Shown here piece by piece: positions 8,646 to 63,283 of a DNA stretch of 64,000 nucleotides (its first letter is position 1; every line of letters starts with the position of its first letter). The translations under genes were made by a program, and so were the position numbers. The notes under the pieces were generated by a model. It had not been told where the DNA came from. It made no database searches and saw only the letters and a program-made list of their open reading frames with translations. Origin of the DNA: a virus (Duplodnaviria > Caudoviricetes); IMG/VR virus record IMGVR_UViG_3300025809_001850; one strand, written 5' to 3'.

Positions 8646-9062
8646 ATGAAAAAAGAACAACTAACTAATCTAATAAGAGAAGCGGTGAGAGCAGAATTGA
8701 AATCTTTTCTACCCAATGTGCTGAAAGAACTCAATACACTCACCAAACAACCCAAGAACAATGCTGATTTAGTTGAAGTTACAAGGAAATCACTGAAGAA
8801 AGTTCGTGCAGATAAACCAATTAAATCTAACACAAACTATAAAACATATTCTAAAAACTCTGCTATAAATGATATACTGAATGAAACAGTAGGTGGAATA
8901 CCACAAGAAGGGGGTGTGTCATCTGGAATAAATGAAGTTAAAGATTTTCAAGGTCAGGTCGTTGATGTTGACGCATTACCTGATCATGTTTCCAATGCAC
9001 TAACCCGGGATTATTCGGCAGTATTAAAAGCAGTTGATAAAAAACGAGGAAACATTAAATGA
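8646..9062 (+). CDS. Hypothetical virion protein with MKKxxLxxLIRE leader
   Basis: Track start 8622; ATG 8646 follows the late motif. Confidence 0.7.
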   Translation: MKKEQLTNLIREAVRAELKSFLPNVLKELNTLTKQPKNNADLVEVTRKSLKKVRADKPIKSNTNYKTYSKNSAINDILNETVGGIPQEGGVSSGINEVKDFQGQVVDVDALPDHVSNALTRDYSAVLKAVDKKRGNIK

Positions 9063-9451
9063 GTGGAGATGGTTTAGGTATAAAACTACCCTACACACGC
9101 AGTAACAAAGAAGGGTATTTTGCTCAAGTTGAAACTGAACTTGACAAAGCAAGAACCAACTTAACGATGTTGTTGATGACATCAAAGGGTGAGCGACCGA
9201 TGATGCCCACATATGGAAGTGATTTAAAAAAAATACTATTTTCTCAAAACACAGAAGGAGCGGTTGATGTTGAATTTGAAGATGCAGTTGTTGATGCAAC
9301 ATCAACTTGGATGAATAGTGTGGTTATCACGGACGTAAAGATAAACCGAGATCCTATAAACAATCCATATCAAGCAGAAATTAAAGTGACTTTTGAACTA
9401 ACAAATCTACCTGACTCAGAACAAGAGTTGGACTTACAAATAGAGGTTTAA
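9059..9451 (+). CDS. gp25: Baseplate wedge/sheath-initiator protein, gp25/GPW family
   Basis: NLTMLLMTSKGERPMMPTYGSDLKKILF motif. Confidence 0.9.
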   Translation: MSGDGLGIKLPYTRSNKEGYFAQVETELDKARTNLTMLLMTSKGERPMMPTYGSDLKKILFSQNTEGAVDVEFEDAVVDATSTWMNSVVITDVKINRDPINNPYQAEIKVTFELTNLPDSEQELDLQIEV

Positions 9452-9453
9452 TT

Positions 9454-11427
9454 ATGACAACCGATATGGACATATTCGCAAATAAAAAAGGTAAAGATAT
9501 AAATTACCTTAGTAGAGACTTCAACTCTTTTAAATCAAGTTTGGTACAATATATAAAATCATACTTTCCTGGATCATACAAAGACTTTAGTGAAAACTCA
9601 ACAGGAATGATGTTTGTAGAATTATCTGCGTATGTTGGTGATGTTTTGTCTTATTATATAGATTATCAATTTAAAGAGGGATTTTTGCAATATGCAAGTG
9701 AACGAAATAACATAATGACACTTGCGGGTTATTTAGGATACAAACCAAAACCATCGGTTCCTGCATCCACAAATATTTCAGTTATGCACATAGTACCATC
9801 AAAACTTGATAGCATGGGAAAGAATATTCCAGACATGAAATATGCATTAAATATTGAAGCTGGTATGGAAGTTAGGTCTGGAGATAATTCTGATATTGTG
9901 TTCAGAACAACCCAACCAGTAATCTTTGCCGAAAATACCCAAGACTCTCCATTAACCATTAAAGTTTTTCAAAGAGATTCTTCTGGTCAACCTGTGTATT
10001 ACTTGCTTAAAAAACTTGCCCATGTATCAAGTGGAACTTTAAAAAGAAAAGTTGTTCAAGTAGGTGAGGCCTCTTCATTTTATGAAATAGAGTTGGGTGA
10101 TACTAATGTGCTGGAGGTGGTTTCTGTAAAGGACTCTGATGAAAATGCTTGGCACGAAGTTCCCTATCTAGCTCAAAGCACGGTGTTGATAGATGAACCA
10201 AACAACTCAAGAAATAGTCCACTTTATTCTAAATACGCAACAACGGTTCCCTATGTATTGCGATACATGAAAACCTCAAAAAGATTTGTGGTACATACAA
10301 ATACAGACAACACAACCACAATTGAGTTTGGAAAGGGTGATGATAAAATTGACGATGAACTTATAGTCCCGAGTATGAGTAATGTGGGTCGTACTATCAA
10401 TACAAATCGTTCTATTTTAGACATGGGTTACGACCCAAGCAACTTTTTGAAAAACGATTCATACGGAGAAGCACCATCCAACACAGAATTGACAATTGAT
10501 TATTATGTGGGAGGTGGTGCGAGCTCCAATGTTGCAAGTAACACACTTAACAACATCAGTCTCGTTTCATATGCCGAGTCAAATGAATTTTTAAATGCAA
10601 ACGAACGATCCACATTAGAAGGAATTAAAAATAGTTTAAAAGTAAACAACGATGAACCTGCACGTGGGGGTAAGGGTGCTGAAAGTGATGAAGAAATAAG
10701 ATTAAAAGGTTTGGCCTCTTTTCCTGCTCAACTTCGTGCAGTTACTAGAGAAGATTATGTTATTCGAGCATATTCTATGCCAGCAAAGTTTGGAAGTGTC
10801 GCGAAGTCGTTTGTAACAAAAGACGGAATTTTAGATACACAATCTCAACTTGATATAATTAAAACAAACGAAACGAACCAAGATATATCACCCGAATCAA
10901 TAAATACCGTATACGGAGAAGTGAATAATCCGTTTGCGATAAATATGTATGTACTTAGTTATGATGAAGATAAGAAACTAACACAACCCAATGAACTTGT
11001 TTTCAAAAATCTAACAAGATACATGACACAATATAGAATGTTAACTGATGGACTAAACATATCCAGTGCGTTTATCATTAACATCGGAATATATTTTGAA
11101 ATCTCTGTTCTTCATAACTTTAATCAAAAAGAGGTTCTTGATAACACTATGGTTGAACTAACAAATTATTTTGAGATAGATAATTGGCAAATTTCACAAC
11201 CAATTGAAATTAGTAGTTTAGAAATAATGATTTCAAAAATAAACGGAGTTCGTACGGTGGGCAACTTGAGGATTGTAAACCTTACATCAAATGATGGAAA
11301 TTATTCCGTAAACGAATATGACATAGAGTCGGCCACCATTGGTAAGATATTATACCCATCAATGGACCCATCAATATTTGAAGTAAAATTTCCTGGTAGA
11401 GATATAGTTGGGAGGGTTGTGTCGTGA
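9454..11427 (+). CDS. gp6: Baseplate wedge subunit gp6 / baseplate-J family
   Basis: RDFNSFKSSL..YFP..YKDFS, ELSAYVGDVLSYYID, GGKGAESDEEIR, RAVTREDY. Confidence 0.9.
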   Translation: MTTDMDIFANKKGKDINYLSRDFNSFKSSLVQYIKSYFPGSYKDFSENSTGMMFVELSAYVGDVLSYYIDYQFKEGFLQYASERNNIMTLAGYLGYKPKPSVPASTNISVMHIVPSKLDSMGKNIPDMKYALNIEAGMEVRSGDNSDIVFRTTQPVIFAENTQDSPLTIKVFQRDSSGQPVYYLLKKLAHVSSGTLKRKVVQVGEASSFYEIELGDTNVLEVVSVKDSDENAWHEVPYLAQSTVLIDEPNNSRNSPLYSKYATTVPYVLRYMKTSKRFVVHTNTDNTTTIEFGKGDDKIDDELIVPSMSNVGRTINTNRSILDMGYDPSNFLKNDSYGEAPSNTELTIDYYVGGGASSNVASNTLNNISLVSYAESNEFLNANERSTLEGIKNSLKVNNDEPARGGKGAESDEEIRLKGLASFPAQLRAVTREDYVIRAYSMPAKFGSVAKSFVTKDGILDTQSQLDIIKTNETNQDISPESINTVYGEVNNPFAINMYVLSYDEDKKLTQPNELVFKNLTRYMTQYRMLTDGLNISSAFIINIGIYFEISVLHNFNQKEVLDNTMVELTNYFEIDNWQISQPIEISSLEIMISKINGVRTVGNLRIVNLTSNDGNYSVNEYDIESATIGKILYPSMDPSIFEVKFPGRDIVGRVVS

Positions 11428-12644
11428 ATATATTTTACAACCCAGAAAAAGATTCAACGATTTATAGTCAGTCAGCAATCAGAGAACTAAACTTTGGTAA
11501 GTCCGAGATATTAGAATTAAAAAACTCATGGTCTGTGGGAAGAGGAACGGGTATATCTAGAATTTTGTTGCAATATAACATACCATTCAATTTAGAAAAC
11601 TATCAAGACTTTGAACATCTCAAGTTTTATTTGGAACTGAAAATAACTCAATCTGAAGAATTAACAGATACAACTCAAATATCTGCATTTCCTATATCTG
11701 ATTATTGGCAATCAGGAATTGGAATCGGTTTAGATGCCGATCCTGTTTATCAACCGGTCAACTGGATATACAAAACAGATTCAGAAAAATGGGAGTCTGA
11801 AGATGATGAGGGTGGGGGTTCTTATTACACACACATTGAACGATGTGGTGAAGACAAAATCCCAATTTCATGCACATATACATTTTCACAAAAAACATCG
11901 GACGTTAATTTAGATGTGACATCAATTGTAAAGTGTTGGATGCTAGGTGACATCCCAAATAATGGATTTTTAATAAAATTCACCCAAGAAGGTAGAACCG
12001 AACGAAATCAATCTATAAAGTTTTATTCTAGTGACACCAACACTATATACTCTCCACGACTAAGAGCTGCATATTTTGATTACGTAAGTCAACAACCAAA
12101 CACACCACCTTCAAGTGAATCGGGTAGTTTATCAGGAACACTACAACAACTTAGTATTTCTAACCAACCAACTTCAGAAGTTACTGATTACGATCTTGGT
12201 TGGGAACGGGTTATTGTTGGTTCGTGTGAGACTATATTGGATCATACAAATGTAATCAACAAACCAACTCCATCTTTAACTGGAGATATCGTTGCCAAAA
12301 TAAAAACTATTAGGAAAAAATACTTCAACAACGAGCAAATAAAGTTCAATTTGTCGGTTAGACACAAACACCCAATCAAAACATTTTCTGACAAAGCAAC
12401 ATACTCTGGTAAAAATATAGTAGATGCTGATATGTTTTACAGCATAAGAGATGCAGAAACTCAAGAGGTTATAGTTGGTTTTGATGAATATTCTAGAATA
12501 AGCAACGACTCTGCTGGTCACTTTTTTATACTAGATTTAAGTGGACTTCATGTGGGTAGATACTATGTGTTTCGTTTATTGGTTTCTGGTGAAAATGGAA
12601 ACGAAATTTTTGAAGACACACGAACATTTGAAATCGGAAGTTAA
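11424..12644 (+). CDS. Virion protein with DNRLRE-like beta-sandwich domain
   Basis: KDSTIY..LNFGKSEILE..SRILLQY..DVTSIVKCW..NNGFLIK..FYSSDT..PRL pattern. Confidence 0.6.
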   Translation: MNIFYNPEKDSTIYSQSAIRELNFGKSEILELKNSWSVGRGTGISRILLQYNIPFNLENYQDFEHLKFYLELKITQSEELTDTTQISAFPISDYWQSGIGIGLDADPVYQPVNWIYKTDSEKWESEDDEGGGSYYTHIERCGEDKIPISCTYTFSQKTSDVNLDVTSIVKCWMLGDIPNNGFLIKFTQEGRTERNQSIKFYSSDTNTIYSPRLRAAYFDYVSQQPNTPPSSESGSLSGTLQQLSISNQPTSEVTDYDLGWERVIVGSCETILDHTNVINKPTPSLTGDIVAKIKTIRKKYFNNEQIKFNLSVRHKHPIKTFSDKATYSGKNIVDADMFYSIRDAETQEVIVGFDEYSRISNDSAGHFFILDLSGLHVGRYYVFRLLVSGENGNEIFEDTRTFEIGS

Positions 12645-22571: not shown

Positions 22572-23559
22572 ATTATATAAAATAAAAGATATAACAGAAA
22601 AGGTTACCGATGCCACATTGTATGGTGATGTAGCGAGTTCAAAAGCAGATGACGCAGATACGAATTTTGCCATTTTAAAAAATCTAAGTGATCAAACCAA
22701 CGACACACCACCAACTGAACGTATGGAAATCAAAAACTCAGATAACTCTGAGTTATTTAATACAAACAATTTAACACTATCATGTTGGATTTATTTAACC
22801 GGTGAATCTGAAGAAAGTTGTGGGGTGATAACAAATGGAGATAATACCAACCGGTGTGGTTTGTTGATAAACGCAAATGCCGGAGTGGGAAACGATGAAG
22901 AATCTGGTATAATTGGATATACATGGAAAAACTCACAAGAGCAAAATTCAGAAGGAGATAGTGTGTGGTCACAAGAAGACAATCCGTTCGGTGAGTTGAC
23001 TATACCAAAAAAGAAGTGGACGCACATAGCAATTATGATTTATTCGTCAGGACGGGCTCGTCTTTTTATAGATAACATATACAAAGCATCTTTTGATGAG
23101 GGGGTTGTTCGTGATAGTGTTTCATTTTCTAAAATAGAACTCGGAAGATTTAATGGATATGCAGATGGATTGATGTGTTTTTCTACTACACTTGATTATG
23201 GAAATGTTGATATAGATCAAGAAGCAACCTCCGATTTCTCTTATTTATATTACACAAGTCGCACAAATCCACGAAGTCCTGTTGTAGAAACACCGATAGT
23301 TACTCCCAAACCAACGGCAGATAATATACCATTTTTTTATATGCAACCAGAAGAATACAATGAAGCAGCTGCTTTGTATGAAGAAAACACTGCTAAAAAA
23401 ATTAAAAGTGGGATGTTTAAAAAAGATGTCCTTGCAGGACAAACACAAGAAGCTTTAATGTTACAGAAACATCCTATCGCAGGTGGTCCTAATGATAAAA
23501 CACGGGTTTATGCAGATAATAAGTTCATGTCGTTCACAGGAGAACTCAGGAAACTGTAA
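22564..23559 (+). CDS. LamG/concanavalin-A-like domain virion protein
   Basis: LTLSCWIYL, KKWTHIAIMI, RARLFIDN, FNGYADGL. Confidence 0.75.
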   Translation: MTKLYKIKDITEKVTDATLYGDVASSKADDADTNFAILKNLSDQTNDTPPTERMEIKNSDNSELFNTNNLTLSCWIYLTGESEESCGVITNGDNTNRCGLLINANAGVGNDEESGIIGYTWKNSQEQNSEGDSVWSQEDNPFGELTIPKKKWTHIAIMIYSSGRARLFIDNIYKASFDEGVVRDSVSFSKIELGRFNGYADGLMCFSTTLDYGNVDIDQEATSDFSYLYYTSRTNPRSPVVETPIVTPKPTADNIPFFYMQPEEYNEAAALYEENTAKKIKSGMFKKDVLAGQTQEALMLQKHPIAGGPNDKTRVYADNKFMSFTGELRKL

Positions 23560-23597
23560 TTTGTGGGTTTATTAAAGAATAAAAACCTAATATATAA

Positions 23598-23605
23598 ATA
23601 TTTAT
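23598..23605 (+). promoter_or_regulatory. Putative late promoter ATATTTAT
   Basis: Within palindrome ATAAATATTTAT 23594-23605; ATG at 23636. Confidence 0.6.
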
Positions 23606-23635
23606 TAAAAAGGAAATCTAGATATATATATTGTT

Positions 23636-24331
23636 ATGGGTTATTTAAATAATGAAACTATTACGGTCGAGGCAACTTTGACCAAACGAGGCAGAGAATT
23701 ACTTGCATCAGACTCCGGTTTGAATATAACAAGTTTTGCACTGGCAGACGATGAAATTGATTACAAGTTATACGATCCCGAGCATCCAGGTGGTTCTCAG
23801 TATTACGATGCAGCTATAAGAAATATGCCAATATTTGAACCATTGGCAGATGAAACGCAGGCACTTAAGTATAAGTTGGTAACCCTTCCGGCCGGAACTC
23901 AATATATTCCGTTGATTAAGTTGGGTCAACAGAGTATAACATTAGATAAAAACTACAATGGAGTGGTGAGTATATCACCAACTACTGATCCGGTATATAA
24001 TACAACACTTGGATACACGGCTGTTTTATCAGATAAACGAGTGGGATCAATAACAGGATCCGGAGTAGACGGAACTGCAGCTTCTTCCTCTGCTTTATTT
24101 TTGGGAGATACTTCAAGTGATCAAGCACAAACCGTGGTGGGTCTTACATTTACATTTCGTCCTAATTCAACTATTGACAAAGATAGAACTGCAACACTAA
24201 CCATCATCGGTAATGAAAGTGGTGGTTCGGTTACAATCCCGGTGAGAGTGTTCACCGACAACTTGGCAGAAAGTGGACTTTCCGATTCATTGAGTTTAGA
24301 CTCAGGATCACCAGCTAGTTCCAATTACTAA
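23636..24331 (+). CDS. Conserved-type virion structural protein
   Basis: MGYLNNETITVEATLTKRGRELLA..ITSFALADDEIDY; C-terminal Ig-like segment. Confidence 0.7.
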   Translation: MGYLNNETITVEATLTKRGRELLASDSGLNITSFALADDEIDYKLYDPEHPGGSQYYDAAIRNMPIFEPLADETQALKYKLVTLPAGTQYIPLIKLGQQSITLDKNYNGVVSISPTTDPVYNTTLGYTAVLSDKRVGSITGSGVDGTAASSSALFLGDTSSDQAQTVVGLTFTFRPNSTIDKDRTATLTIIGNESGGSVTIPVRVFTDNLAESGLSDSLSLDSGSPASSNY

Positions 24332-37691: not shown

Positions 37692-38216
37692 ATGAGCATC
37701 AAAGAATACAAACAATATAAAGACGATCCGTTTTGGATGAAGTCAAAGTATGATGGGGTCTCCGGTGAACAAAAATTACCTGTTCAACGAAGATTGCGTA
37801 AAGGTGAAGTAAAATTTAAGAAGGGTGATGAAATACTTTATTATCCAAAAGGAAAAGTAATATTAGTCGGAAAAAAAGCAGAACAAGCATATCGTGATTT
37901 TCAAGCAGCTGCATCTGATGAAGATTTTTATATGTCTCAATACGAGGAATCAAACATGAAAACAACAAATGAAGTAAAACTAACAAGTCCTGAATACAAG
38001 AAAGCTCTGAATTTTATGTCAAATATGCATTCTAGTATTTTGAAGGCAAAAGACAAAGTAATCAAGTTCTTACAAAGAAAGGGGTTTGACGAAATGGCTG
38101 ATGAACTTACAAAAATGTCAAAAGGTGAGTTTAATAAATTCGTTACCCAAAAGGTATACGAAAATAAACTAAGAAAGCATATTCGTTCTATTTTGTCTGA
38201 ATTGTTAGAGAAGTAA
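37692..38216 (+). CDS. Hypothetical protein (modular)
   Basis: Track start 37686; ATG 37692 follows the upstream stop. Confidence 0.65.
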   Translation: MSIKEYKQYKDDPFWMKSKYDGVSGEQKLPVQRRLRKGEVKFKKGDEILYYPKGKVILVGKKAEQAYRDFQAAASDEDFYMSQYEESNMKTTNEVKLTSPEYKKALNFMSNMHSSILKAKDKVIKFLQRKGFDEMADELTKMSKGEFNKFVTQKVYENKLRKHIRSILSELLEK

Positions 38217-45264: not shown

Positions 45265-47118
45265 ATGGCAGACGATCCAAAACAAAGCAAATTATTCGGA
45301 GCACTTAAAAAACTTTTTTCAAGTGGTGTCGTGGTTAGAAACATCGGTGGTAAAAAACTAAAAATCGCAGATACGGACAATTTACAATATTCCAAAAAAC
45401 GAGACGACAAGTACCAACGAATGCACACTTTGTATAGTGATTATGCAAATGGTTTCAATAATATTGGATTTCAATCTGCACGACTGGAATTGTTTAGTGA
45501 TTATGAAGTAATGGATACTGATCCAATTATATCAAGTGCCTTAGACATTTATGCGGATGAATCAACTACTAAAAGTGAGTTTGGTGAGATTCTTAAAATT
45601 TCAAGTCCTGATTCAAATGTTAAAGGTATCCTTGAAAATTTATTTTACGATATATTGAATGTTGAATTTAATTTATGGGGTTGGATTCGCAATATGTGTA
45701 AATACGGAGATTTTTATCTTCATTTAGAAATAGAACCTGATTATGGGGTGTTAAATGTTAAACCCATTTCAACTTATGAAATGACTCGTATAGAAGACAT
45801 GGATCCAGATAATCCTCAGTTGGTTATGTTCAAACAAGAAGGTCAGTATCGTGTAGACTATGAGAACTATGAAGTTGCACACTTTAGATTACTAGGAGAT
45901 ACAAATTATTTACCTTATGGAAAAAGTATGATAGAGGGTGGAAGACGAACATGGAAACAACTTCAGCTTATGGAGGATGCCATGCTCATTCATAGAATTA
46001 TGAGAGCACCTGAAAAACGAATGTTTTATATTGATATTGGTAACATTCCACCAAATGAAGTTGATAACTTTATGCAAAAGGTAATCAATAAAATGAAGAA
46101 AGTTCCGTTTGTTGATGAAAAAACAGGTGACTATAATCTCAAGTTCAATTTGCAAAACATGACCGAAGATTTCTTTTTACCTGTGCGTGGAGGAGATAGT
46201 GGTACACGAATTGAGAACTTAGGTGGAATGACTTACGATGGAACTGAAGATATCGAATATGTTAAAAACAAAATGATGGCTGCACTTAAAGTACCAAAAG
46301 CATTTTTAGGATACGATGAAAGCATAACAGGTAAAGCAACTCTGGCCGCAGAAGATATTAGGTTCGCACGAACAATTGAAAGATTACAAAGAATTACCGT
46401 AAGTGAACTTACTAAAATTGCTATAGTTCATCTTTATTCACAGGGATACACAGATGCCAAGTTGGTTGATTTTAGTTTAAAGTTGACTAATCCATCTACA
46501 ATTTTTGAAGAGGAACGGATACGAATTCTATCTGAAAAACTTAATACTGCCCGAGATATGGTAGACGCAAAAATGTTTTCTAAGGATTGGGTATATGATA
46601 AGATATTCGGTCTTTCTGAAGATGAAGTTAATGATATTCGGAGTAATTTTGTAGATGATGCTAAGGAATTTTTTAGATTAGAAAGTATACAAAACGAAGG
46701 AAATGATCCGGCTGATCCAACTCAATCTACCGATTCCGAAGAAGAAGGAGACGGTTGGGGTTTCGGTGATTTTGAAAATATGTCTTCTGAAGAAAAAGAA
46801 GAAGCAATAAAACAACGCAAAAAAGAGGAAAAGAAACGTAAGAATGCGGGAAAGGTATATGATCATCCTGACGACAAACCAATGGGAAGAGACCCACAAG
46901 GAGCAGATGAAAGACGAGTAAGTGGGCGTGATTGGGGAGATAGTCCATTGAAGTTGGAATCTGATTTAGCAAAACTAGACGAATTTTTGAAACAAAAACA
47001 ACAAGTTAATCCGGAAACAAAATCAAAAATAATATGTGAAGCAGAAGAAACGTCACACGAATCAAAAGCCGATCCAATCACCGACTATTTAGACGATAAA
47101 AATATAATTAAAAAATAA
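45265..47118 (+). CDS. gp20: Portal protein (T4 gp20-like)
   Basis: WKQLQLMEDAMLIHRIMRAPEKRMFYIDIGNIP, EDFFLPVRGG..GTRIENLGG, ALKVPKAFL. Confidence 0.96.
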   Translation: MADDPKQSKLFGALKKLFSSGVVVRNIGGKKLKIADTDNLQYSKKRDDKYQRMHTLYSDYANGFNNIGFQSARLELFSDYEVMDTDPIISSALDIYADESTTKSEFGEILKISSPDSNVKGILENLFYDILNVEFNLWGWIRNMCKYGDFYLHLEIEPDYGVLNVKPISTYEMTRIEDMDPDNPQLVMFKQEGQYRVDYENYEVAHFRLLGDTNYLPYGKSMIEGGRRTWKQLQLMEDAMLIHRIMRAPEKRMFYIDIGNIPPNEVDNFMQKVINKMKKVPFVDEKTGDYNLKFNLQNMTEDFFLPVRGGDSGTRIENLGGMTYDGTEDIEYVKNKMMAALKVPKAFLGYDESITGKATLAAEDIRFARTIERLQRITVSELTKIAIVHLYSQGYTDAKLVDFSLKLTNPSTIFEEERIRILSEKLNTARDMVDAKMFSKDWVYDKIFGLSEDEVNDIRSNFVDDAKEFFRLESIQNEGNDPADPTQSTDSEEEGDGWGFGDFENMSSEEKEEAIKQRKKEEKKRKNAGKVYDHPDDKPMGRDPQGADERRVSGRDWGDSPLKLESDLAKLDEFLKQKQQVNPETKSKIICEAEETSHESKADPITDYLDDKNIIKK

Positions 47119-47179: not shown

Positions 47180-48049
47180 GTGAAAAAGTTAAAACATAGC
47201 AAATATAAGAATACCGGCATCCTGTTTGAATTACTTGTCAGACAAATAACCGCTGATATACTCGATGGCAATGCAGAATCACCTGCAAACAAATTGCTAA
47301 AGAAACATTTTTCTGAAAATACTTCGCTTGGAAAAGAGCAAAGATTATATCAGTTGTTGATAGAAGAATCTACAGGTGATTCGTCAAAAGCAGATACACT
47401 TCTCGGTGTTGTGCTTGATTCCCACAAAAAACTTCTTCAAACGGAACTTGTAAATGCTAGATACGAGTTGGTTAAGGATATTAAAGAATCGTATCCAATA
47501 AATGATTTATTTCGTTCCAAGATAAGAAACTATAAAACATACGCAAGTATTTTTAAATTGTTTGAAAGTCACAATCCAACTATATATTGTGACCCCAAGG
47601 AAATATACGAATCAAAAACAACTGTTCTACAGAATTTATGTTCTCGGGGTTCTGAAAAAAATGAGGTTGTAGATGTCAACGAATATGAAAAACAAAACGA
47701 AGATTTAAGACTAATTGCGTATAAATTGTTGGTCGATAATTTTAATAAAAAATACAGTACCCTTGACGATGCCCAGCAAAAACTTCTTAAAAATTACATA
47801 AATAATATTTCAAATACGAATAGTTTGCGTGAATACATCAACAAGCAGGTTCCTTCAATCAAAAATCAAATCAACGAATACTCAGATTCAATAGAAGATG
47901 ATGTTGTTAAAATAAAGTTAAAAGAAGTAATTTCTCAACTTGACAAAACAACCGAAGGAAAAGTTGTAAAGGATTCTCAAGTATCAACACTTTTAATGAG
48001 TTACGAGTTGATAAAGGAGTTGAAGAAACACGCAAATGAAAAAAAGTAA
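47180..48049 (+). CDS. Hypothetical head-morphogenesis protein
   Basis: KHSKYKNTGILFELLVRQIT; located between portal and protease. Confidence 0.7.
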   Translation: MKKLKHSKYKNTGILFELLVRQITADILDGNAESPANKLLKKHFSENTSLGKEQRLYQLLIEESTGDSSKADTLLGVVLDSHKKLLQTELVNARYELVKDIKESYPINDLFRSKIRNYKTYASIFKLFESHNPTIYCDPKEIYESKTTVLQNLCSRGSEKNEVVDVNEYEKQNEDLRLIAYKLLVDNFNKKYSTLDDAQQKLLKNYINNISNTNSLREYINKQVPSIKNQINEYSDSIEDDVVKIKLKEVISQLDKTTEGKVVKDSQVSTLLMSYELIKELKKHANEKK

Positions 48050-48512
48050 TCTTAAAGACATCATAAGAACAATTCTTCAAGAACTTGAAGAAGAATCTAA
48101 ATTGTCCGAAGTTAATACCACATCAAATGTAGATGGATACGAAACTCCTCATGCATTTAGTGGCAAGGATGAAGATGAACACGCAGAAGACATAAAGTCT
48201 AACGCAGAGGTGTTTGATTACAAGTCCACAGAAAATAAAAAAGCAAACACTATAAAACTAAACGAGGGCAGAAGTTTGTTTCACTTGTTCAGAGATCATC
48301 CTGATTATACACCTGAGCAAAAAGTGGGAGTCGCGGTACGAGAAATAAATAAACTTATGACTGAAGTTGAAAAATTGTTAAAAGTTTCTACACGGTATAA
48401 AGCAGAGGCAAACGTGAACAATAGTAAAATGTGGAAAACGACAAATAGATTTTTATTAAAAATAGACGAAAAGATTAAACGCATTTCTTATAAAATAAAA
48501 GAAATGAAATAG
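48036..48512 (+). CDS. Hypothetical internal head protein candidate
   Basis: MKKSNLKDIIRTILQE leader; LSE and LNE sites. Confidence 0.65.
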   Translation: MKKSNLKDIIRTILQELEEESKLSEVNTTSNVDGYETPHAFSGKDEDEHAEDIKSNAEVFDYKSTENKKANTIKLNEGRSLFHLFRDHPDYTPEQKVGVAVREINKLMTEVEKLLKVSTRYKAEANVNNSKMWKTTNRFLLKIDEKIKRISYKIKEMK

Positions 48513-48909: not shown

Positions 48910-49737
48910 ATGTGTGAGTGTGGATGTGGAAGTTGTGAAGTTGTAGAATCGGAATCCAATGCCGATCCAAGTATAGACAACTATAAATTGGCACTTAAAA
49001 ATCTAGGTGGTGCAATTAAATCTGCACACAAAACGGAAGAAGGAAAAAAACTCTCTGCTGAGTATTGGCTTGATATAGTTAGTTTACTCAAAAAAGCAAA
49101 ACTTGGTGTTTCTATGATGGAACTCGGAATTGATGACGAAGAAGAAATCAAAAACACGCACGATACATCCATTAAAAAAGTAAAACCAACACCAGATGGA
49201 GAAAAAGGTGAAGGTGGTCCACGTGACGGGGAATCATCTGATTCAGATAAATCTACATCCGAAGGTATAATTGAAAAGTCTGCATCAAAATCACAACAAA
49301 GATTGTTTGGTATGGTTCATGCATATAACAAAGGTGATCTTAAAAAAAGTGATGTAGATTCTGATTTGTATGATAAAGTAAAAAAAATTGCAAGTGGGAT
49401 GACAAAAACAGACGCAGAGGATATGGCCAAAACGGATCACTCTGATTTACCTGAAACAATTCCAACTGACGAATTTTACGACACAATGAATCATCTTAAC
49501 ATTTTATTGTCAGAGTATTCATTTGATAAGATAGAAAGTGGTGGGTCACAGGTTAGCATAGATACCAATGATCGCAAATTCACTATAAAGTTTGATGATA
49601 AGTTTTATATGGTTTCTCCGGATTACAACTTTGAACTCGGAAATATATCCGATTTGAATGAAGTTGTAGAGAAATTTGTCAAATTAACAAAACAATCAGA
49701 ATTTTTGTTAAAAACAGAGTATGAAGCATCTGTTTAA
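48910..49737 (+). CDS. Modular head protein with Cys-rich N-terminus and DUF3008-like module
   Basis: MCECGCGSC; IIE|KSASKSQQRLFGMVHAY..KKIASGMTKTDAEDMAKTDHSDLPE. Confidence 0.6.
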   Translation: MCECGCGSCEVVESESNADPSIDNYKLALKNLGGAIKSAHKTEEGKKLSAEYWLDIVSLLKKAKLGVSMMELGIDDEEEIKNTHDTSIKKVKPTPDGEKGEGGPRDGESSDSDKSTSEGIIEKSASKSQQRLFGMVHAYNKGDLKKSDVDSDLYDKVKKIASGMTKTDAEDMAKTDHSDLPETIPTDEFYDTMNHLNILLSEYSFDKIESGGSQVSIDTNDRKFTIKFDDKFYMVSPDYNFELGNISDLNEVVEKFVKLTKQSEFLLKTEYEASV

Positions 49738-49795: not shown

Positions 49796-50425
49796 ATGGC
49801 AAAAAAATTATTAGTATCCACCATGCCCTTTGAATTCAGTCCTGAGCAAATAAGTGAAAGTATTGAAAAAAACTCGGGTAAACTTCTTGTAAGGGGAATT
49901 CTACAAAAAGCAACTGAACAAAATCAAAATGGTCGTGTTTATACACGGTCACTGTTGGAACGAGAGGCGGGCAAATATAACGAACTGATAAATGATAGAC
50001 GTGCACTGGGAGAACTTGATCATCCAGAAAGCAGTGTAGTTAATTTACAGAATGTAAGTCACAATGTTAAAAAGATGTGGTGGGAAGGTGATAGTCTTCT
50101 TGGTGACGTTGAAGTTTTAGGAACTCCGTCTGGTAATATTTTAAAAGAATTGTTTAAGGCTGGTATCACACTTGGTATAAGTTCAAGGGGAATGGGAACT
50201 ACTCGTGAAAGTGAAGGAAAAACTATGGTCAATGATGATTTTGAATTGGTGGCATTTGATTTTGTTAGCAATCCATCAACCAGAGGTGCTTTTTTAGAAC
50301 CTGTGAATTTAAACGAATCAGTTTCACCTGAACTTAAAGTCATAACCGAAGACCGAGTGTGTACCAAATATTGTAAACTTGAGGGAATCGTACATGAAAT
50401 ACTCGGAGAGATTGGAGAAATGTAA
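49796..50425 (+). CDS. gp21: Prohead core protease (T4 gp21-like)
   Basis: GILQKATEQNQNGRVY, ALGELDHP, LGISSRGMG, FDFVSNPST; TTATTTAT variant 4 nt upstream. Confidence 0.95.
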   Translation: MAKKLLVSTMPFEFSPEQISESIEKNSGKLLVRGILQKATEQNQNGRVYTRSLLEREAGKYNELINDRRALGELDHPESSVVNLQNVSHNVKKMWWEGDSLLGDVEVLGTPSGNILKELFKAGITLGISSRGMGTTRESEGKTMVNDDFELVAFDFVSNPSTRGAFLEPVNLNESVSPELKVITEDRVCTKYCKLEGIVHEILGEIGEM

Positions 50426-50886
50426 TGAATAAAGAAATCTCTAAATTAATCAAGTCTACGATTTTAGAAGTTCTCAAAGAAGAACGAACTAAACAAATCA
50501 ATGAATTTAATCCAAAAACAGGTAGGTTTGAAGACGAAGGTTTGTCAGCTGACCAAAAAAAGTTAACATCTGAGAAAATTTCTAAGTTCGGAAATTATCA
50601 GTCATATATCACTCACGAAGCAAAAGATACGGACATAGCAGAAGATATATGTAATATCGTTGAAAATGCATCTAAGTATATTCTCAATGAAACAGATGAT
50701 TGGTTTGATGCAATGAGTGTAAAACGTAATCTAAAAGAAATCAAAACTCTTGCTAAAGAATTTCACAAAACTGCAAACGAAAGACAAGTATACACACAGC
50801 GTATGCAAAGTTTGTATGAAGATATGGGTAATATCTTAAACAGATATTTTGAAATAAACGGAGAAACTACCAATGAACAAACGTGA
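50425..50886 (+). CDS. Hypothetical head protein
   Basis: MNKEISKLIKSTILE leader. Confidence 0.7.
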   Translation: MNKEISKLIKSTILEVLKEERTKQINEFNPKTGRFEDEGLSADQKKLTSEKISKFGNYQSYITHEAKDTDIAEDICNIVENASKYILNETDDWFDAMSVKRNLKEIKTLAKEFHKTANERQVYTQRMQSLYEDMGNILNRYFEINGETTNEQT

Positions 50887-51601
50887 ACTTAAAAACTATA
50901 TAACGAAAGTATTGCTTGAGAAGTTAGAACAAACTCCGGTGGTTTTCGGTAAACTTGTAAAGAAAACAATTAGTTTCAGTGGAATACAACGTGAAATTGT
51001 CTGCGAAGGCAATGTTACAGATGCAAACGAATACGCAACACAAAACAAATTAACATTTACATCAGAAGAAACTGCACACTTCGGAGGTCACTTTAATAAC
51101 GAAATGACTTCATATGAATTCCACCCAAATCCAGAGTTCTACGGAGAACTCATGGAAACGTCTATGTCTGCACGTGAACAACTTGCACGTATATGTGGAA
51201 CGAACGACCAAGTACTAACTGAGGTACACGTACAAAACGCAGAAACTCTGGTTAACTTTGTTTGTACAAACGAGTTATTTCGTGAAGAACGAACAAACAT
51301 GGTGTTTGAGCAAATCAATAGTAGTATAAAAGGTTGTTTGTATGACAAAACTCAATTTACAAAATTATTTGAATATCTAGTAAAACAATCGTGTATATCA
51401 TATACAGAAGATAAAATAGAATTATCTGAATCTGAATTTGAGTATGCGACTACACTTCTTTCCAAACGTTTTTTTGAGAATCAAGAAGAACTAGAAGAAC
51501 TAGAAGAAGATAAAACCAAGTGTGGAAAAAAATCATTTAAAACAGGTAGTGCATTTGAAAATATGCAAAGAATAAAATCAGGTCACCAAATGTTCCTATA
51601 A
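50873..51601 (+). CDS. Hypothetical head protein
   Basis: MNKRELKNYITKVLLE leader. Confidence 0.7.
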   Translation: MNKRELKNYITKVLLEKLEQTPVVFGKLVKKTISFSGIQREIVCEGNVTDANEYATQNKLTFTSEETAHFGGHFNNEMTSYEFHPNPEFYGELMETSMSAREQLARICGTNDQVLTEVHVQNAETLVNFVCTNELFREERTNMVFEQINSSIKGCLYDKTQFTKLFEYLVKQSCISYTEDKIELSESEFEYATTLLSKRFFENQEELEELEEDKTKCGKKSFKTGSAFENMQRIKSGHQMFL

Positions 51602-51613: not shown

Positions 51614-52336
51614 ATGAAAATTACAAAAAAAGAACTAAGAGAAGTTATCCAAGAAGTCGCAGAAGAACTTGGACTATTTGAAGGCTTAACAGCCGCACAA
51701 GAAAAATTACCAGAACCTTTGAAAAAAGCAATTCTTAAAAAGCAAGGTAATTCCGATTCATCTGATGATGAAACAGAAGATGTTGAAGAGGGATTAACAG
51801 CCGCACAAGAAAAATTACCAGAACCTTTAAAAAAAGCAATTCTTAAAAAGCAAGGTAATACTGAAGAATCGGATGATGATTCGGAAGAAGAGTCAATTGA
51901 AGAAGGCAATGCTTTCGGTGCGGCCGTAAAAGCTGCTCGTGAAAACGGAGACAAAGAGTTTGAAGTTGCGGGTAAGAAATACAAACTAAAAGAAAAGAAA
52001 GAAATTACCGAACAAGAAGACACCGAAGAATTTACAGGTGAAGACGAAGACGATGTAGAAGAAGGTAACGCATTTGGTGCAGCTGTAAAAAAAGCAAAAG
52101 AAGACGGAGACACAGAATTTCAAGTTGACGGAAAAACTTACAAGGTAAGTGAAGACTGGTCTAAAATAAAAGAAGTCTCTGATTGTTCGTATGAAGAAGA
52201 CGATGAAGACATCGAAGAAACGGTAGATGCAGAATTCGAAGTTGGTGGCAAAACATACAAGGTTCGTGAAAACTGGACCAAGATAACCCTTGCCGAAAAA
52301 CTAGACAGAATACTCGGAAATCGCAAAATTTTGTAA
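51614..52336 (+). CDS. Acidic repeat-containing internal head/core protein
   Basis: 2x EGLTAAQEKLPEPLKKAILKKQGN, 2x EEGNAFGAAVK..GDxEFxVxGKxYK plus one partial copy. Confidence 0.75.
   Translation: MKITKKELREVIQEVAEELGLFEGLTAAQEKLPEPLKKAILKKQGNSDSSDDETEDVEEGLTAAQEKLPEPLKKAILKKQGNTEESDDDSEEESIEEGNAFGAAVKAARENGDKEFEVAGKKYKLKEKKEITEQEDTEEFTGEDEDDVEEGNAFGAAVKKAKEDGDTEFQVDGKTYKVSEDWSKIKEVSDCSYEEDDEDIEETVDAEFEVGGKTYKVRENWTKITLAEKLDRILGNRKIL
51680..51859 (+). repeat. Near-identical 72-nt direct repeat within the internal head protein gene
   Basis: ...ttaacagccgcacaagaaaaattaccagaaccttt(g/a)aaaaaagcaattcttaaaaagcaaggtaat occurs twice. Confidence 0.9.
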
Positions 52337-52541: not shown

Positions 52542-53810
52542 ATGAGTAAATTACTAAAAGAAGCTATTGCAGATGCGAAAGCAGTTCGTGAAACAGCTCT
52601 TGCAAATGCAAGACTTGCCCTCGAAGAAGCTTTCGCACCACGTTTGCAAAGTATGCTTACAAAAAAACTCAAGGAAGAAGAATTAGAAGACGAAGAATCA
52701 GAAGTTGAAGTTTCTGATGAAGTTGAAGAAGGTTCTTACTCCGAAGAGGACGAAGAAGTCGCAGTTGAAGACGATGAAATAGAAGTTGCCGATGAAGCAC
52801 CAGTTGAAGAACCGGCTGCTGAAGAAGCACCTGCTGAAGAAGCACCTGCTGAAGACGAAATTGACGTTGAACCAGAAGTCGAAGGTGACTATTCTGAAGA
52901 AGACGAAGATGCAGTTGAAGAAGATGCGTTCGATTTAGATTCCATCATCAAGGAACTTGAAGATGAAATGGCAGTCGAAGACGATGAAGAAGAGTTGGAA
53001 GAACAATCCGACTCATCTGAATTAGGCACAGGTGGAGAAGAACACGTAAACGTTGCTGATAGTGACGATGAAGAACTTCCTGCTGAAACTGAAACTGTTG
53101 CTGGTGATCCAGGAACTGAAGGCGAAGAAGAAAAAGTTGCTGATATTGACGAAGATATTGATATTGAAATCGTAGAAGAATCCGAAGAAGAATCCGAAGA
53201 AGAATCCGAAGAAGATTCTGACGAAGATTCTGACGAAGATTCTGACGAAGTTGAATCAATTGACGAGTCTGAAGAAGATGAATCTGAAGAAGATGATGAA
53301 GAAATCAACTTAGAAGAAATCCTCAAGGAACTTGAAGACGAGTCGGCAGACGTGGAATCTGAAGAAGACGAGTCCTCTGAAGAACTAGCAGAACTTAAAA
53401 CTGCAAATACTAAACTTCAACAAGAAAATGATGAATACCGCAAAGTTTACAAATTTTTGCGAGGTAAGTTAAATGAAGTTAATCTTCTTAATGCAAAATT
53501 GCTTTACACAAATAAGTTGTTTAAGGCACACGTATTAAATGAAGATCAAAAACTAAAGGTTGTAGAAAGTTTTGACCTTACGAAGAATGTTCGTGAAGCA
53601 AAATTAGTATATGCCACACTTGGAGAGAGTTTCAGAACTCAAACACCAGAAGTAAAGGTAAAATCAAAACCTGTAAAGGCTGAGAAAAACCCTTTGACTG
53701 AAGGAATTGCATCCAAGGCAATCAAATCAACAAAACCTTCCAAGAAGATTTTATCTGAGGGCAACGAACTTGCTAACAGATTCAAGAAACTTGCAGGTAT
53801 AAAATCATAA
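52542..53810 (+). CDS. Prohead scaffolding protein (gp22 analogue)
   Basis: LLKEAIADAKAVRETALANARLALEEAF; very acidic middle with 12- and 15-nt tandem repeats; LNEVNLLNAKLLY; directly before MCP. Confidence 0.85.
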   Translation: MSKLLKEAIADAKAVRETALANARLALEEAFAPRLQSMLTKKLKEEELEDEESEVEVSDEVEEGSYSEEDEEVAVEDDEIEVADEAPVEEPAAEEAPAEEAPAEDEIDVEPEVEGDYSEEDEDAVEEDAFDLDSIIKELEDEMAVEDDEEELEEQSDSSELGTGGEEHVNVADSDDEELPAETETVAGDPGTEGEEEKVADIDEDIDIEIVEESEEESEEESEEDSDEDSDEDSDEVESIDESEEDESEEDDEEINLEEILKELEDESADVESEEDESSEELAELKTANTKLQQENDEYRKVYKFLRGKLNEVNLLNAKLLYTNKLFKAHVLNEDQKLKVVESFDLTKNVREAKLVYATLGESFRTQTPEVKVKSKPVKAEKNPLTEGIASKAIKSTKPSKKILSEGNELANRFKKLAGIKS

Positions 53811-53843: not shown

Positions 53844-55268
53844 ATGAGTGAAATAGGCAAATTATTAAAAGAAAGTCAGAATCCTCAAGAACGTCTTATG
53901 TCCGAAACCCGTGGTTTAGTAACTAAATGGGAAAAGACAGGACTTCTCGAAGGAATTTCTACTGACACAGAAAAGAGTGGTATGTCCATTCTTTTAGAAA
54001 ATCAAGCAAAGCAGTTGATCGATGAATCATCACGCACCGGTACAGGTGGAGGCAACGAAGAGTGGAGTGGAGTAGCACTTCCTTTAGTACGTCGTGTGTT
54101 CGCAGAAATCGCATCAAAGGAATTCGTTTCCGTTCAACCAATGAATCTTCCCTCCGGATTGATCTTTTACTTAGACTTTAAGTATGGAACAGGTCAATCA
54201 CTTCAAGGTGGTGGAAGTCTTTTCGGTGGATCATCAGACGCAAAACTCGGTTCAACCGATGAAGCAACAGGTGGTCTTTACGGAGCAGGTCGTCACGGTT
54301 ACTCACTCAATGACAAGCAAATCGCTGTCGAGGTAGGTGCGGCTATCCCAGCTGATGCAGACTTAGAAGGTGTTCGTGCGTTTAAAGTTGTTGCAGCTGA
54401 CGGAAGTGAATCTCAACTTGACGGTGAAAACAAAGCAATCGCAGCCGGAACATTACATTACCATGCGGCTACAACCGCAGAAAATCGTGGTGATTTTGAA
54501 GACAATCTTGGTAATTCCGAAGACGCAGCTGACACAGGAATTCAAAAAGATGTCGGTATCCCCGAAGTTAACTTGGAACTCAAAAGTGAACCAATCGTTG
54601 CAAAGACACGTAAGTTGAAAGCAGTTTGGACACCCGAGTTGGCACAAGACCTTAACGCATATCATAGTATTGATGCAGAAGCAGAATTGACTTCTCTTCT
54701 TTCCGAGTACGTTTCAATGGAAATTGATTTGGAAATTCTCGATATGCTTATCGTTAACGCACATACTGTAGGTACTGAATTTGATGCGACTACTGCTCTT
54801 ACGGGTGGTGAGACTCAAGGAACATTGTTCCAGAAACTCGGCACAAGTATTCAAAAGGTGAGTAACACAATTCATCAATTGACACTTCGTGGTGGTGCAA
54901 ACTTCTTGGTTTGTTCTCCAACGGTTGCTACAATTCTTGAAAGTATCCCAGGATACGCAGCTGACACAGACGGAAATCAGTCTCAGTTCGCAATGGGTGT
55001 TACTAAAGTAGGTGCGTTAAACAATCGTTTCCAGGTTTACAAGAATCCATACATGACGAGTGGTGACATTCTCATCGGATTCCGTGGAACAAACTTCCTC
55101 GAAACTGGTGCAGTTTATGCTCCGTACATTCCGTTAATCCAAACTCCATTGGTATACGATCCGGTCAACTTTACTCCACGTCGTGGTGTAATGACCCGTT
55201 ATGCCAAGAAGATGGTTCGTCCTGAATTCTACGGTAAACTTACCGTTAAGAATGCAGAGAATCTGTAA
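53844..55268 (+). CDS. gp23: Major capsid protein (T4 gp23-like)
   Basis: LPLVRRVF..VSVQPMNLPSGLIFYL, AKTRKLKAVWTPELAQDL.AYH.IDAEAEL, YAPYIPL, PRRGVMTRY. Confidence 0.97.
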   Translation: MSEIGKLLKESQNPQERLMSETRGLVTKWEKTGLLEGISTDTEKSGMSILLENQAKQLIDESSRTGTGGGNEEWSGVALPLVRRVFAEIASKEFVSVQPMNLPSGLIFYLDFKYGTGQSLQGGGSLFGGSSDAKLGSTDEATGGLYGAGRHGYSLNDKQIAVEVGAAIPADADLEGVRAFKVVAADGSESQLDGENKAIAAGTLHYHAATTAENRGDFEDNLGNSEDAADTGIQKDVGIPEVNLELKSEPIVAKTRKLKAVWTPELAQDLNAYHSIDAEAELTSLLSEYVSMEIDLEILDMLIVNAHTVGTEFDATTALTGGETQGTLFQKLGTSIQKVSNTIHQLTLRGGANFLVCSPTVATILESIPGYAADTDGNQSQFAMGVTKVGALNNRFQVYKNPYMTSGDILIGFRGTNFLETGAVYAPYIPLIQTPLVYDPVNFTPRRGVMTRYAKKMVRPEFYGKLTVKNAENL

Positions 55269-61543: not shown

Positions 61544-62248
61544 ATGGAAATCTCACTTACTGATATATTACATGAATTACAATATGAAGAATTTTGTAAA
61601 TTTGTAAAAGAAAATAAACTTGACTCTGATGTATGTACATTGAATGAGTTTGCAATACCTGGTAGATTAAAAAAGATTTGGTCATTTTTGAAAGAATTAA
61701 AAGATATAATCAAGGTTAAGATCATGGACTTGGCAAAATTATTTATGAACAAACTTGTATTTAAGTTCTTCGCAAAAATAAAATTCAGTATGAAGTATTT
61801 ATTTGATCTGGTTAAAAAAGGATTCAAGGCATATAAAGAGGTGATAAAGGCAATAGGAGACTACTTATCCAAAACTAAAGTAGGACGATGGACTGAAGAC
61901 AAACTAAAAGATTTGGATGCGTTCTTGGCAACGCATCCGAAGACTAAAAGAATTGCAGGTATGGCAGTTGCCGGTATATTGATTTATATTTGGTTAAACA
62001 TGACATTCACAGGAAATGCAGATTATGATTTTGATATGGGTGATATGATTCTTGCACTTGGTGGTGGGTTCACATTATCTACTTTATTTGCCGGACCAGA
62101 AGGAATGGCACTATTAACATTATTTGTAACTGGTGTCATCGGATTGTCGTTTCCATGGCCAGGTCCTCAACACTTTCAATTCATAGGAGCCATTGTATAT
62201 GGTTCTGCAAAACTAGTTGGTCAGAAACTAAGAAAAGACAAAACATAA
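61544..62248 (+). CDS. Hypothetical amphipathic/membrane protein between sheath and tube
   Basis: Acidic leader ending TLNE, basic amphipathic helices, then 2-3 hydrophobic segments. Confidence 0.75.
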   Translation: MEISLTDILHELQYEEFCKFVKENKLDSDVCTLNEFAIPGRLKKIWSFLKELKDIIKVKIMDLAKLFMNKLVFKFFAKIKFSMKYLFDLVKKGFKAYKEVIKAIGDYLSKTKVGRWTEDKLKDLDAFLATHPKTKRIAGMAVAGILIYIWLNMTFTGNADYDFDMGDMILALGGGFTLSTLFAGPEGMALLTLFVTGVIGLSFPWPGPQHFQFIGAIVYGSAKLVGQKLRKDKT

Positions 62249-62321
62249 ATAAATATATTTTTTAATTTGGTAACTATTTATACTTGTTGATTGAAAAAAC
62301 AAGTTTTTGAATTTTTAATCA

Positions 62322-62329: not shown

Positions 62330-62366
62330 TACTAAAAGTTAATCATTAAACTGGAGAACAACAAAA

Positions 62367-62858: not shown

Positions 62859-62884
62859 TTTTTACATAATATTCAGTTTAATTT

Positions 62885-62918
62885 AAAAAAAACTCCCTTC
62901 TCGGGAGTTTTTTTTTTT
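62885..62918 (+). terminator. Rho-independent terminator after tube
   Basis: AAAAAAAACTCCC-ttctc-GGGAGTTTTTTTT. Confidence 0.9.
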
Positions 62919-62926
62919 CGACATAT

Positions 62927-62934
62927 ATATTTAT
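62927..62934 (+). promoter_or_regulatory. Putative late promoter ATATTTAT
   Basis: 7 nt before ATG 62942. Confidence 0.7.
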
Positions 62935-62941
62935 TGATACA

Positions 62942-63283
62942 ATGAATTCTGAAAAACTAAAAACACAAGTCCTTGATATATTTGAGGAAATTAAACACGA
63001 TAGGCAAGGTGAACTCCAACTTGAGGGATTAAGTGGTGCGTATTCTAAACTAGCAAAGTTTCTGTTAAATCAAGTAAAGGCAGGTAAATTTCTAAGAAAT
63101 TATGATATTGATACGGATAGTGGAAGATTTATGTTTCAAACAGGAAGTGGAAAAAAGATTGTGTTTAACGACATGAAACTTGGTGTTACACTAAATAAGA
63201 CATGGAAGGGTAAAAAGGATAGTGAGTTTTTCAGTTACGGTGATCATAAGAAAATATTAAGTTTTGCTTTAGCAGACATTTAA
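62942..63283 (+). CDS. Hypothetical protein with capsid-leader-like N-terminus
   Basis: MNSEKLKTQVLDIFEE...LQLE|G. Confidence 0.7.
   Translation: MNSEKLKTQVLDIFEEIKHDRQGELQLEGLSGAYSKLAKFLLNQVKAGKFLRNYDIDTDSGRFMFQTGSGKKIVFNDMKLGVTLNKTWKGKKDSEFFSYGDHKKILSFALADI

Follow-up and report, generated by a model that had tools for sequence, protein, structure and literature searches.

Why should several otherwise unrelated proteins of one phage begin with the same kind of short helix? The question is raised by an uncultured, marine, T4-like phage of the Caudoviricetes, IMG/VR virus record IMGVR_UViG_3300025809_001850 (151.8 kb; CheckV completeness 75%), of which we analyzed a window of 64,000 nucleotides (bases 54,466-118,465 of the record) with all large genes on the plus strand. 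An initial annotation of this window had pointed out that six proteins, starting at positions 8646, 48036, 50425, 50873, 51614 and 62942 (p8646 to p62942 in what follows), share an amphipathic N-terminal leader ending in Glu, and had compared this leader with the capsid-targeting sequence (CTS) of phage T4, a tag common to otherwise unrelated proteins (PMC9026906). Our analysis suggests that the leader helix is probably this lineage's version of the T4 tag, which would give its carriers affinity for the scaffolding core and would then be cleaved off by the gp21-family protease. A near-identity DNA search across the phage collection returned no match to this phage; 80 related IMG/VR loci were fetched for the position-specific scoring matrix (PSSM) used below, with its prohead protease as query, a query that finds more than 580 related loci.

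A terminal amphipathic helix on unrelated proteins

All six N-termini translate as the annotation had quoted them. The leaders are amphipathic helices of 15-18 residues, except that the leader of p8646 measures 17 or 28 residues and that of a seventh carrier, encoded outside the window at genome position 23010 (the genome-23010 protein), 16 or 21. An [ILV]-x-E motif is present at or near the leader end in all seven cases (IRE, LQE, ILE, LLE, VAE, IFE and ISE). Beyond the leader the carriers are indeed unrelated: after removal of the first 20 residues no BLASTP match below E = 0.06 was found among them, and Pfam and PHROG searches of all carriers gave no family above threshold. When the genes are compared with each other, the DNA that encodes the leaders is no more than 42-60% identical, so that the likeness lies at the peptide level and does not reflect recent duplication.

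The helical hydrophobic moment of the leaders ranks 1, 4, 8, 10, 12, 27 and 38 among the 142 N-termini of the phage (Mann-Whitney P = 7e-6), and in an unbiased all-against-all comparison of N-termini the leaders form a clique among the top pairs. The terminal Glu is conserved in 12/14 sequences for p48036, 14/15 for p50425, 17/17 for p50873 and 15/15 for p51614 (window protein counted), and substitutions at the hydrophobic leader positions stay within the residue class across orthologs. AlphaFold2 models place a leader helix at residues 3-18 (p50873) or 3-21 (genome-23010 protein), followed by a loop. Related N-termini also occur in cultured phages: in Flavobacterium phage immuto a 73-aa gene at the position of 48036 begins MKKSQIVKAVQEVLEE, and in Microcystis phage Mel-JY01 the homologs of p48036 and p50425 have amphipathic N-termini.

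To search for the motif in a non-circular way, a PSSM of 12 columns (consensus ELKEIIREVLLE) was trained on the relatives' orthologs of the four head-module families only, and the 142 open reading frames (ORFs) of the phage were scanned at 47,570 positions (matches in Table 1). It could be argued that the likeness is a chance effect of an AT-rich genome whose composition favors Lys, Asn, Ile and Glu, as MKK and MNK starts are common in such genomes and the earlier examples had been chosen by eye. We consider this scarcely credible, since the matrix, although trained on other genomes, recovers more members: within the first 17 positions of non-training proteins, four matches of at least 10 bits were seen where the internal rate predicts 0.27 (Poisson P = 1.8e-4), the reversed proteome gave 5 matches in 47,570 positions, and the pattern is conserved in hundreds of orthologs. 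The scan of the genome and its relatives, which the annotation had proposed as a check, thus recovered further carriers, almost all of them terminal. The PSSM recovers an identical set of families in two further relatives with near-complete genomes (170 and 161 kb), and a search for additional cargo families in these two genomes found none, so that the motif marks a small, stable set of proteins and prefers termini. The leader motif is real, and within this clade its carriers are a fixed kit that is not freely shuffled. The idea of a fast-changing cassette within the clade was dropped, as the carrier set is identical in three genomes.

The same observations bear on the proposal that the helices are generic amphipathic segments, involved in coiled-coil oligomerization or membrane association, with no role in targeting or proteolysis. 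Amphipathic helices are common, the hydrophobic moment of the leaders is high, and individual pairwise scores between N-termini are not far above background. This proposal nevertheless appears distinctly improbable, because it leaves unexplained the near-invariant terminal Glu, the hydrophobic-x-Glu junction that precedes the mature domain in 58/62 sequences of the genome-23010 family (see below), the preference for termini and the clustering near the protease gene.

Head-module carriers and the T4 capsid-targeting sequence

Four leader carriers are placed between the portal, protease and scaffold genes. In order, the head module comprises the portal gene (45265; 83 homologs in the fetched loci), a gene for a conserved 289-aa product (47180), p48036, genes at 48522 and 48910, the protease, p50425, p50873, p51614, the scaffold and the major capsid protein, which corresponds to the T4 order 20-67-68-21-22-23 plus extra genes on either side of the protease. 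The protease matches Pfam Peptidase_S77 (6e-27; 94.8 bits, cut-off 27) and PHROG 207, head maturation protease (5e-52). The capsid protein is 29% identical to T4 gp23 (E = 9e-37) and 52-54% identical to those of immuto, Mel-JY01 and an uncultured 484-kb phage, and has a candidate maturation site, LIDE/SS, near residue ~61. As the annotation had noted, scaffold and capsid protein both start with a KLLKE segment (Table 1); both ends of the gp22-like scaffold are conserved in an alignment of 18 sequences, and the N-terminal Glu of the capsid protein is not kept in every relative.

Internal proteins of T4 owe their affinity for the scaffolding core to propeptides of 10-19 residues, which gp21 cuts off after a Glu preceded two residues earlier by Leu or Ile (PMC9026906, PMC5694885, PMC3012670); gp21 itself and Alt also lose C-terminal pieces (PMC9026906). 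Replacement of this Glu by Asp prevents processing in T4 and leaves targeting intact (PMC9026906). The leaders described here resemble the T4 CTS of IPI, IPII and IPIII and the propeptides of gp24 and Alt (Mullaney and Black 1996, as reviewed in PMC9026906, PMC5694885 and PMC3012670) in several respects: the tag is a short N-terminal propeptide (10-19 residues in T4; a putative one of 15-21, perhaps 28, here), it ends in Glu with Leu, Ile or Val two positions before, it occurs together with a protease of the gp21 family, a scaffold like gp22 and a capsid protein like gp23, and some of its carriers belong to the head gene block and others are encoded elsewhere. The C-terminal propeptides of gp21 and Alt have a parallel in the C-terminal motifs described below. 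In contrast to the T4 CTS, the helix here is longer and regularly amphipathic, the set of carriers is conserved where that of T4 is polymorphic, and a function established in T4 by experiment is here predicted from sequence. By its logic, length, protease family and gene context, the leader would, by analogy, belong to the T4 CTS/gp21-propeptide kind. CTS-like tags are already known in T-even relatives, and the CTS has been suggested as a general route for protein loading in T4-like phages, the internal proteins of T-even phages being polymorphic (PMC9026906); no paper joining the term "capsid targeting sequence" with marine or metagenomic phages was among the matches listed in a literature search.

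A more distant comparison is offered by the giant phages phiKZ, 201phi2-1 and SPN3US, in which many head proteins are cut after Glu by a diverged gp21-like protease, the common N-termini of paralogs are thought to be CTS-like, and the protease is processed at its own C-terminus (PMC5694885). These phages differ from the present one in that their propeptides are mostly longer than 100 residues, the cleavage motif is A/S/G-x-E, no gp22 is recognizable and cleavage has been shown by mass spectrometry (PMC5694885).

Shared leaders can also serve other enzymes, and the leader could in principle be a recognition tag for another partner, such as a modifying enzyme, a chaperone or a secretion route. 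Such a partner seems very improbable to us: the sole conserved neighbor of the carriers is the gp21-type protease, the motif ends in the cleavage signature of that family, and no candidate partner enzyme was noticed beside the carriers (no systematic search for one was made).

Among the head-module carriers, p48036 is the most widespread, being present in 79 of ~80 related loci, including the distant group B, immuto and Mel-JY01. Its homologs have a long amphipathic leader ending in Glu in every case, the conserved Glu being E16. It occupies the position of T4 gp67 and gp68, small core proteins that are encoded between portal gene 20 and protease gene 21 and cleaved by gp21, but has no homology to them detectable with PHROG or Pfam; p48036 is probably a prohead core protein. 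In p51614 the conserved Glu is E18 and 16 [ILV]xE sites are present against 7.8 expected, and an ortholog has an acidic stretch in common with the scaffold. The internal repeats of p51614 consist of a GLTAAQEKLPEPLKKAILKKQG unit (two copies), an EEGNAFGAAVK unit (two copies) and a G-K-x-Y-K-[LV] unit (three copies), separated by acidic stretches ending in [VI]-E-E/G.

The other two carriers, p50425 and p50873, are encoded with p51614 between protease and scaffold, where T4 has no such genes. The start of p50425 overlaps the stop codon of the protease gene by 1 nt, and in its family (~100 homologs) the core IKxxILEVLKEE is conserved and the prefix variable. In the p50873 family, L15 and E16 are invariant (n = 17) at identities to the window protein down to 31%. 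The AlphaFold2 model of p50873 (pLDDT 70) shows the leader helix, a loop, a beta domain and a helical domain; a structure search with this model gave no PDB match at E <= 0.001, and its Atlas matches all had TM values below 0.3.

These data are relevant to a narrower explanation, namely that the leaders are nothing more than propeptides, for cleavage or assembly, on core proteins of the gp67/gp68 kind, which are degraded and expelled, and that no cargo is retained. The place of p48036 in nearly every relative, the acidic, repeat-rich sequence of p51614, its twofold excess of [ILV]xE sites over expectation and its acidic stretch in common with the scaffold, and the fixed carrier set of three genomes, unlike the polymorphic internal proteins of T-even phages (PMC9026906), all speak for it, and p48036 and p51614 do look more like degraded prohead core components than like delivered cargo. 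As an account of the whole family this explanation is unlikely: the predicted folded domains of p50873 fit a retained protein better than a sacrificial scaffold, and the genome-23010 protein, described in the next section, is confidently folded in its model, contains an invariant DGHHR motif, is encoded far from the head genes and carries swapped leaders in many lineages. The annotation had proposed that diverse cargo is loaded into the prohead. The protease family, the head-module setting, the near-invariant Glu with a hydrophobic residue two positions ahead of it and the lineage-matched leaders of one cargo family favor its reading of the leader as a T4-like targeting propeptide; delivery as cargo is the less likely fate for p48036 and p51614.

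Table 1. Leader carriers, head genes and related features of the phage. Positions refer to the window unless marked as genome positions.
Feature	Coordinates	Strand	Leader or leader-like segment	Remarks	PSSM match
p8646, 138 aa	8646..9062	+	8646-8696 (17 aa, ends VRAE) or to 8729 (28 aa, ends LKE)	Between spike (gp5-like) and gp25-like genes	15.1 bits, position 17
174-aa ORF	37692..38216	+	KLRKHIRSILSE at 38166-38201	Helix 4 residues from the C-terminal end	21.6 bits, rank 4 of 47,570
Portal, gp20-like	45265..47118	+		Upstream edge of head module; immuto ortholog annotated T4-like gp20	
p48036, 158 aa	48036..48512	+	48036-48083 (16 aa, ends LQE)	Position of T4 genes 67/68	
Prohead protease, T4 gp21 family	49796..50425	+		Peptidase_S77 and PHROG 207 matches	
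Protease C-terminal motif, weaker copy	50375-50410	+	KLEGIVHEILGE	4 residues from the end	8.2 bits; 12.4 bits in relative G002
p50425, 153 aa	50425..50886	+	50425-50469 (ILE) or to 50481 (LKE)		
p50873, 242 aa	50873..51601	+	50873-50920 (16 aa, ends LLE)		
p51614, 240 aa	51614..52336	+	51614-51667 (18 aa, ends AEE), then LGLFE/G	Acidic, with internal repeats	
Scaffold, gp22-like	52542..53810	+		Begins MSKLLKE	10.0 bits, internal, residue 131
Scaffold internal motifs	52932-52967; 53304-53342	+	DLDSIIKELEDE; INLEEILKELEDE	18-sequence alignment	
Major capsid protein, gp23-like	53844..55268	+		Begins MSEIGKLLKE	
Weak candidate, 234 aa	61544..62248	+	Begins MEISLTDILHE	Hydrophobic Gly-rich segments	
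p62942, 113 aa	62942..63283	+	62942-62989 (16 aa, ends IFEE)	Separate cassette after tail-tube gene	10.1 bits, position 5; 12.0 bits in G002
Genome-23010 protein	Genome 23010-23741 (locus L115:3011-3742)		Begins MEIPQLKKLIQTCISE	Seventh carrier, outside the window	12.8 bits, position 5
Promoter-like motif TATATTTAT	8633, 25847, 36261, 42952, 47136/47142, 55348, 61530, 62926			Copies in the window	

Leaders of other lineages and carriers outside the head module

That carriers are also encoded beyond the head cluster, as the annotation had held, is best supported by the genome-23010 protein. Its family has at least 277 metagenomic homologs and, in cultured phages, a single weak match, in Mel-JY01. 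Among 62 diverse homologs, a common domain starting GGFKLN follows an N-terminal extension of 12-38 residues before an invariant Asn. A Glu lies 2-7 residues before this Asn in the 58 sequences mentioned above (at exactly -6 in 40), and hydrophobic residues are common 2-4 positions ahead of the junction Glu. The extension itself varies by lineage and may be this clade's own long helix, a relative of that helix with 17 residues (MYKSELKEIIRTIITEE), the T4-length MRFKNYLTE, an Arg-rich form of 25-30 residues or one of several others. In a 230-kb phage the homolog begins MRLKNYLLEE, and neighboring, unrelated small genes begin MKFKDYIKE and MKFKNYLAEE.

A similar exchange is seen in the p50425 family, which has the long leader in this clade and MSKKIKLKDLLEE in the orthologs of group B and of a sister clade (own loci L023-L082; protease 62-66% identical). 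In each sister-clade locus, one to six small genes between protease and scaffold begin MIKLKxLLxE. The sister clade thus resembles the present one in head gene order, in leaders on small protease-scaffold genes and in the orthologous p50425 cargo, and differs in that a 10-residue tag of T4 length stands on many small genes, whereas here a helix about one turn longer stands on few, fixed genes. Taken together, these comparisons, in which the leader was set against the other leaders of the same lineage for two lineages that carry the genome-23010 family, suggest that the type of tag depends on the phage lineage rather than on the cargo, as predicted for a signal that is read by the lineage's own scaffold and protease; the genome-23010 family is the clearest comparative sign found that the tag is exchangeable. 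The portable zip-code of the initial annotation agrees with the cargo families that carry lineage-matched leaders; within the clade the carrier set is small and fixed.

The model of the genome-23010 protein has a mean pLDDT of 82.6, and the DGHHR motif is invariant in all 62 sequences. In a Foldseek search of the PDB, 21 of the top 23 matches were ParB, Noc or sulfiredoxin structures, all weak (E = 0.4-1.4; TM 0.2-0.5) and located in the C-terminal half; Atlas leads pointed to ParB_N for 14% of one cluster and to ParBc_2 for 57% of a second. A Pfam ParB_N search of the genome gave no match, and the protein has no match to any Pfam family. Its C-terminal domain is possibly ParB/sulfiredoxin-like, which the modeled structure offers only as a lead. 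The gene lies just after a stretch whose translation resembles the end of a tRNA gene, and adjoins an HNH endonuclease gene.

Head modules of the two clades also differ in other genes. A DUF3008 protein (PF11450, 25.1 bits) is encoded here at 48910-49737, upstream of the protease; its sister-clade homolog is located downstream of the protease and ranges in size from 249 to 658 aa. The sister-clade head module contains a ribosomal protein S21-like gene between the p50425 homolog and the scaffold (loci L030, L031, L034 [10554-10739], L036, L038, L039, L042, L044 and L061), as does Mel-JY01 (L002:9188-9415, annotated RpsU); the window phage has no S21-like gene at that place of its head module.

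The promoter-like motif TATATTTAT occurs in 38 copies in the 151.8-kb record, where shuffled sequence yields about 11. From most copies it is only 4-8 nt, and from some 20-45 nt, to a downstream ATG, which suggests that transcripts starting from it may be leaderless or have a very short 5' untranslated region. It precedes the TerL gene, other structural genes, the start of the head operon and all outlying leader genes, and p8646 and p62942 are each a separate cassette with their own copy.

The start of p8646 is an internal ATG of a longer ORF, and is taken to be correct because all positional orthologs begin MKK and TATATTTAT stands 4 nt upstream. A pattern-based search for relatives of p8646 found none, and its orthologs (~30 relatives) were recovered only through synteny with the gp25-like gene; their best-conserved part is the first 28 residues, MKKxELIxIIRxAVRAELxxSLPxxLSE. 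Atlas feature searches for p8646 and p48036 returned only unnamed viral clusters. In two loci of a distant relative (L171 and L172) a spike-like gene lies ~45 nt upstream of the gp25-like gene with nothing between them, so that p8646 is probably an insertion specific to this clade. The leader of p62942 is conserved in 64 homologs, every one of them from this clade, and a hairpin and a T-run, followed by TATATTTAT, stand upstream of its gene. We regard the membership of p8646 and p62942 in the leader family as only moderately supported. The weak candidate at 61544 was matched by a loose regular expression from position 1 and did not pass the PSSM; TATATTTAT lies 5 nt upstream of it.

Downstream of the genome-23010 gene and of a gene for a GDPD/hydrolase fusion, two paralogs of ~520-540 aa are encoded at genome 27051-28607 and 28637-30265, each with TATATTTAT 4-5 nt upstream. 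The former starts with MDVVEHYLSE, in which L-S-E at residues 8-10 recalls a tag of T4 length; the latter starts with MDIVEHYLNK and reaches 10.8 bits with the leader PSSM. These two proteins, too, may be packaged.

From these comparisons we infer a path of core binding, cleavage, packaging and ejection for the carriers. The leader, with the core ELKxIIRxVLxE, would be an amphipathic propeptide through which its carrier gains affinity for the scaffolding core during prohead assembly, and the gp21-family protease would then cut after the terminal Glu, two residues past a hydrophobic one. As core components, p48036 and p51614 would probably be chopped up and expelled. By contrast, p50425, p50873, the genome-23010 protein, and perhaps p8646 and p62942, would probably stay in the head and leave it with the DNA.

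Motifs at C-termini and inside the scaffold

The annotation had also reported a similar helix at the end of the 37692 ORF, and this ORF does end in KLRKHIRSILSELLEK. Across 37 related loci the distance of the motif from the C-terminal end is unchanged, and directly before the helix there is a conserved V-[YHF]-E (V-Y-E here) that would make a better release site than the terminal Glu. A weaker copy stands at the C-terminus of the protease, where no alternative release site was found before the motif. The helix at these two C-termini may serve the purpose of the N-terminal leader from the opposite end of the protein. Next to the 37692 ORF, 38217-40754 encodes an 845-aa protein with weak cytidylyltransferase-like and ligase-adenylation-like matches, the first 24 residues of which end in LLTE/AS, and upstream, at 36290-37339, a zeta-toxin-like P-loop kinase has TLVE/G near residue 29.

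The acidic middle of the scaffold is hypervariable among relatives except for DLDSIIKELEDE and INLEEILKELEDE, both of which resemble the cargo leaders and contain I/L-K-E sites. A tentative and somewhat doubtful proposal is that the leader mimics these two segments, so that cargo would join the core by imitating the self-association and cleavage elements of the scaffold, and a tag at the N-terminus or the C-terminus would be equally effective. Likeness to scaffold-internal segments, the motif at C-termini and the exchange of leaders on cargo families between lineages go beyond what the annotation had described.

Several observations weigh against the equation of the leader with a CTS. Among orthologs, the leader is no more conserved in identity than the rest of the protein. 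There is no sequence likeness to the T4 CTS MKTYQEFIAE: T4 leaders were compared by reading (NC_000866: ipII and ipIII MKTYQEFIAE, gp24 MAKINELLRE, gp22 MLKEQLIAE, gp21 MNEPQLLIE, and also ipI), and the PSSM, applied to the sequences of T4 core proteins and gp24, gave at most 4.5 bits on gp68, gp21, gp22 and gp24, so that the leader would be either an analog of the T4 tag or related to it only very distantly. The annotated Glu end holds in the form [ILV]-x-E for all leaders, but VRAE at residue 17 of p8646 has no hydrophobic residue two before Glu, and IRE12 or LKE28 fit better. The genes of p8646 and p62942 lie among those for baseplate and tail, and the two products could belong to the tail and have N-termini with no more than a likeness to the tag. 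We rejected TATATTTAT as proof of late expression, since copies are also found ahead of some non-structural genes on the minus strand. A cut after the Glu of the C-terminal motifs would free only four residues, a poor fit to the model, and virion mass-spectrometry data for the clade or for its nearest cultured phages, immuto and Mel-JY01, were sought and none were found.

If the leader is this lineage's CTS, the capsid-targeting principle of T4 would also hold for a branch of T4-like phages that is abundant in the sea and uncultured, and a sequence rule for head-packed proteins would follow: a terminal amphipathic helix with a hydrophobic-x-Glu end that matches the head proteins of the same lineage. 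Were the scaffold mimicry also true, the leader type of a lineage could be read from its scaffold sequence, and the head-packaged proteome of uncultured T4-like phages, including the widespread family with the possible ParB/sulfiredoxin-like domain, would become predictable from sequence alone. By analogy with T4, use of the leader as a tag for protein packaging would be reasonable. Proteins delivered together with the DNA, which here belong to no known families, would be prime candidates for early host takeover or anti-defense.

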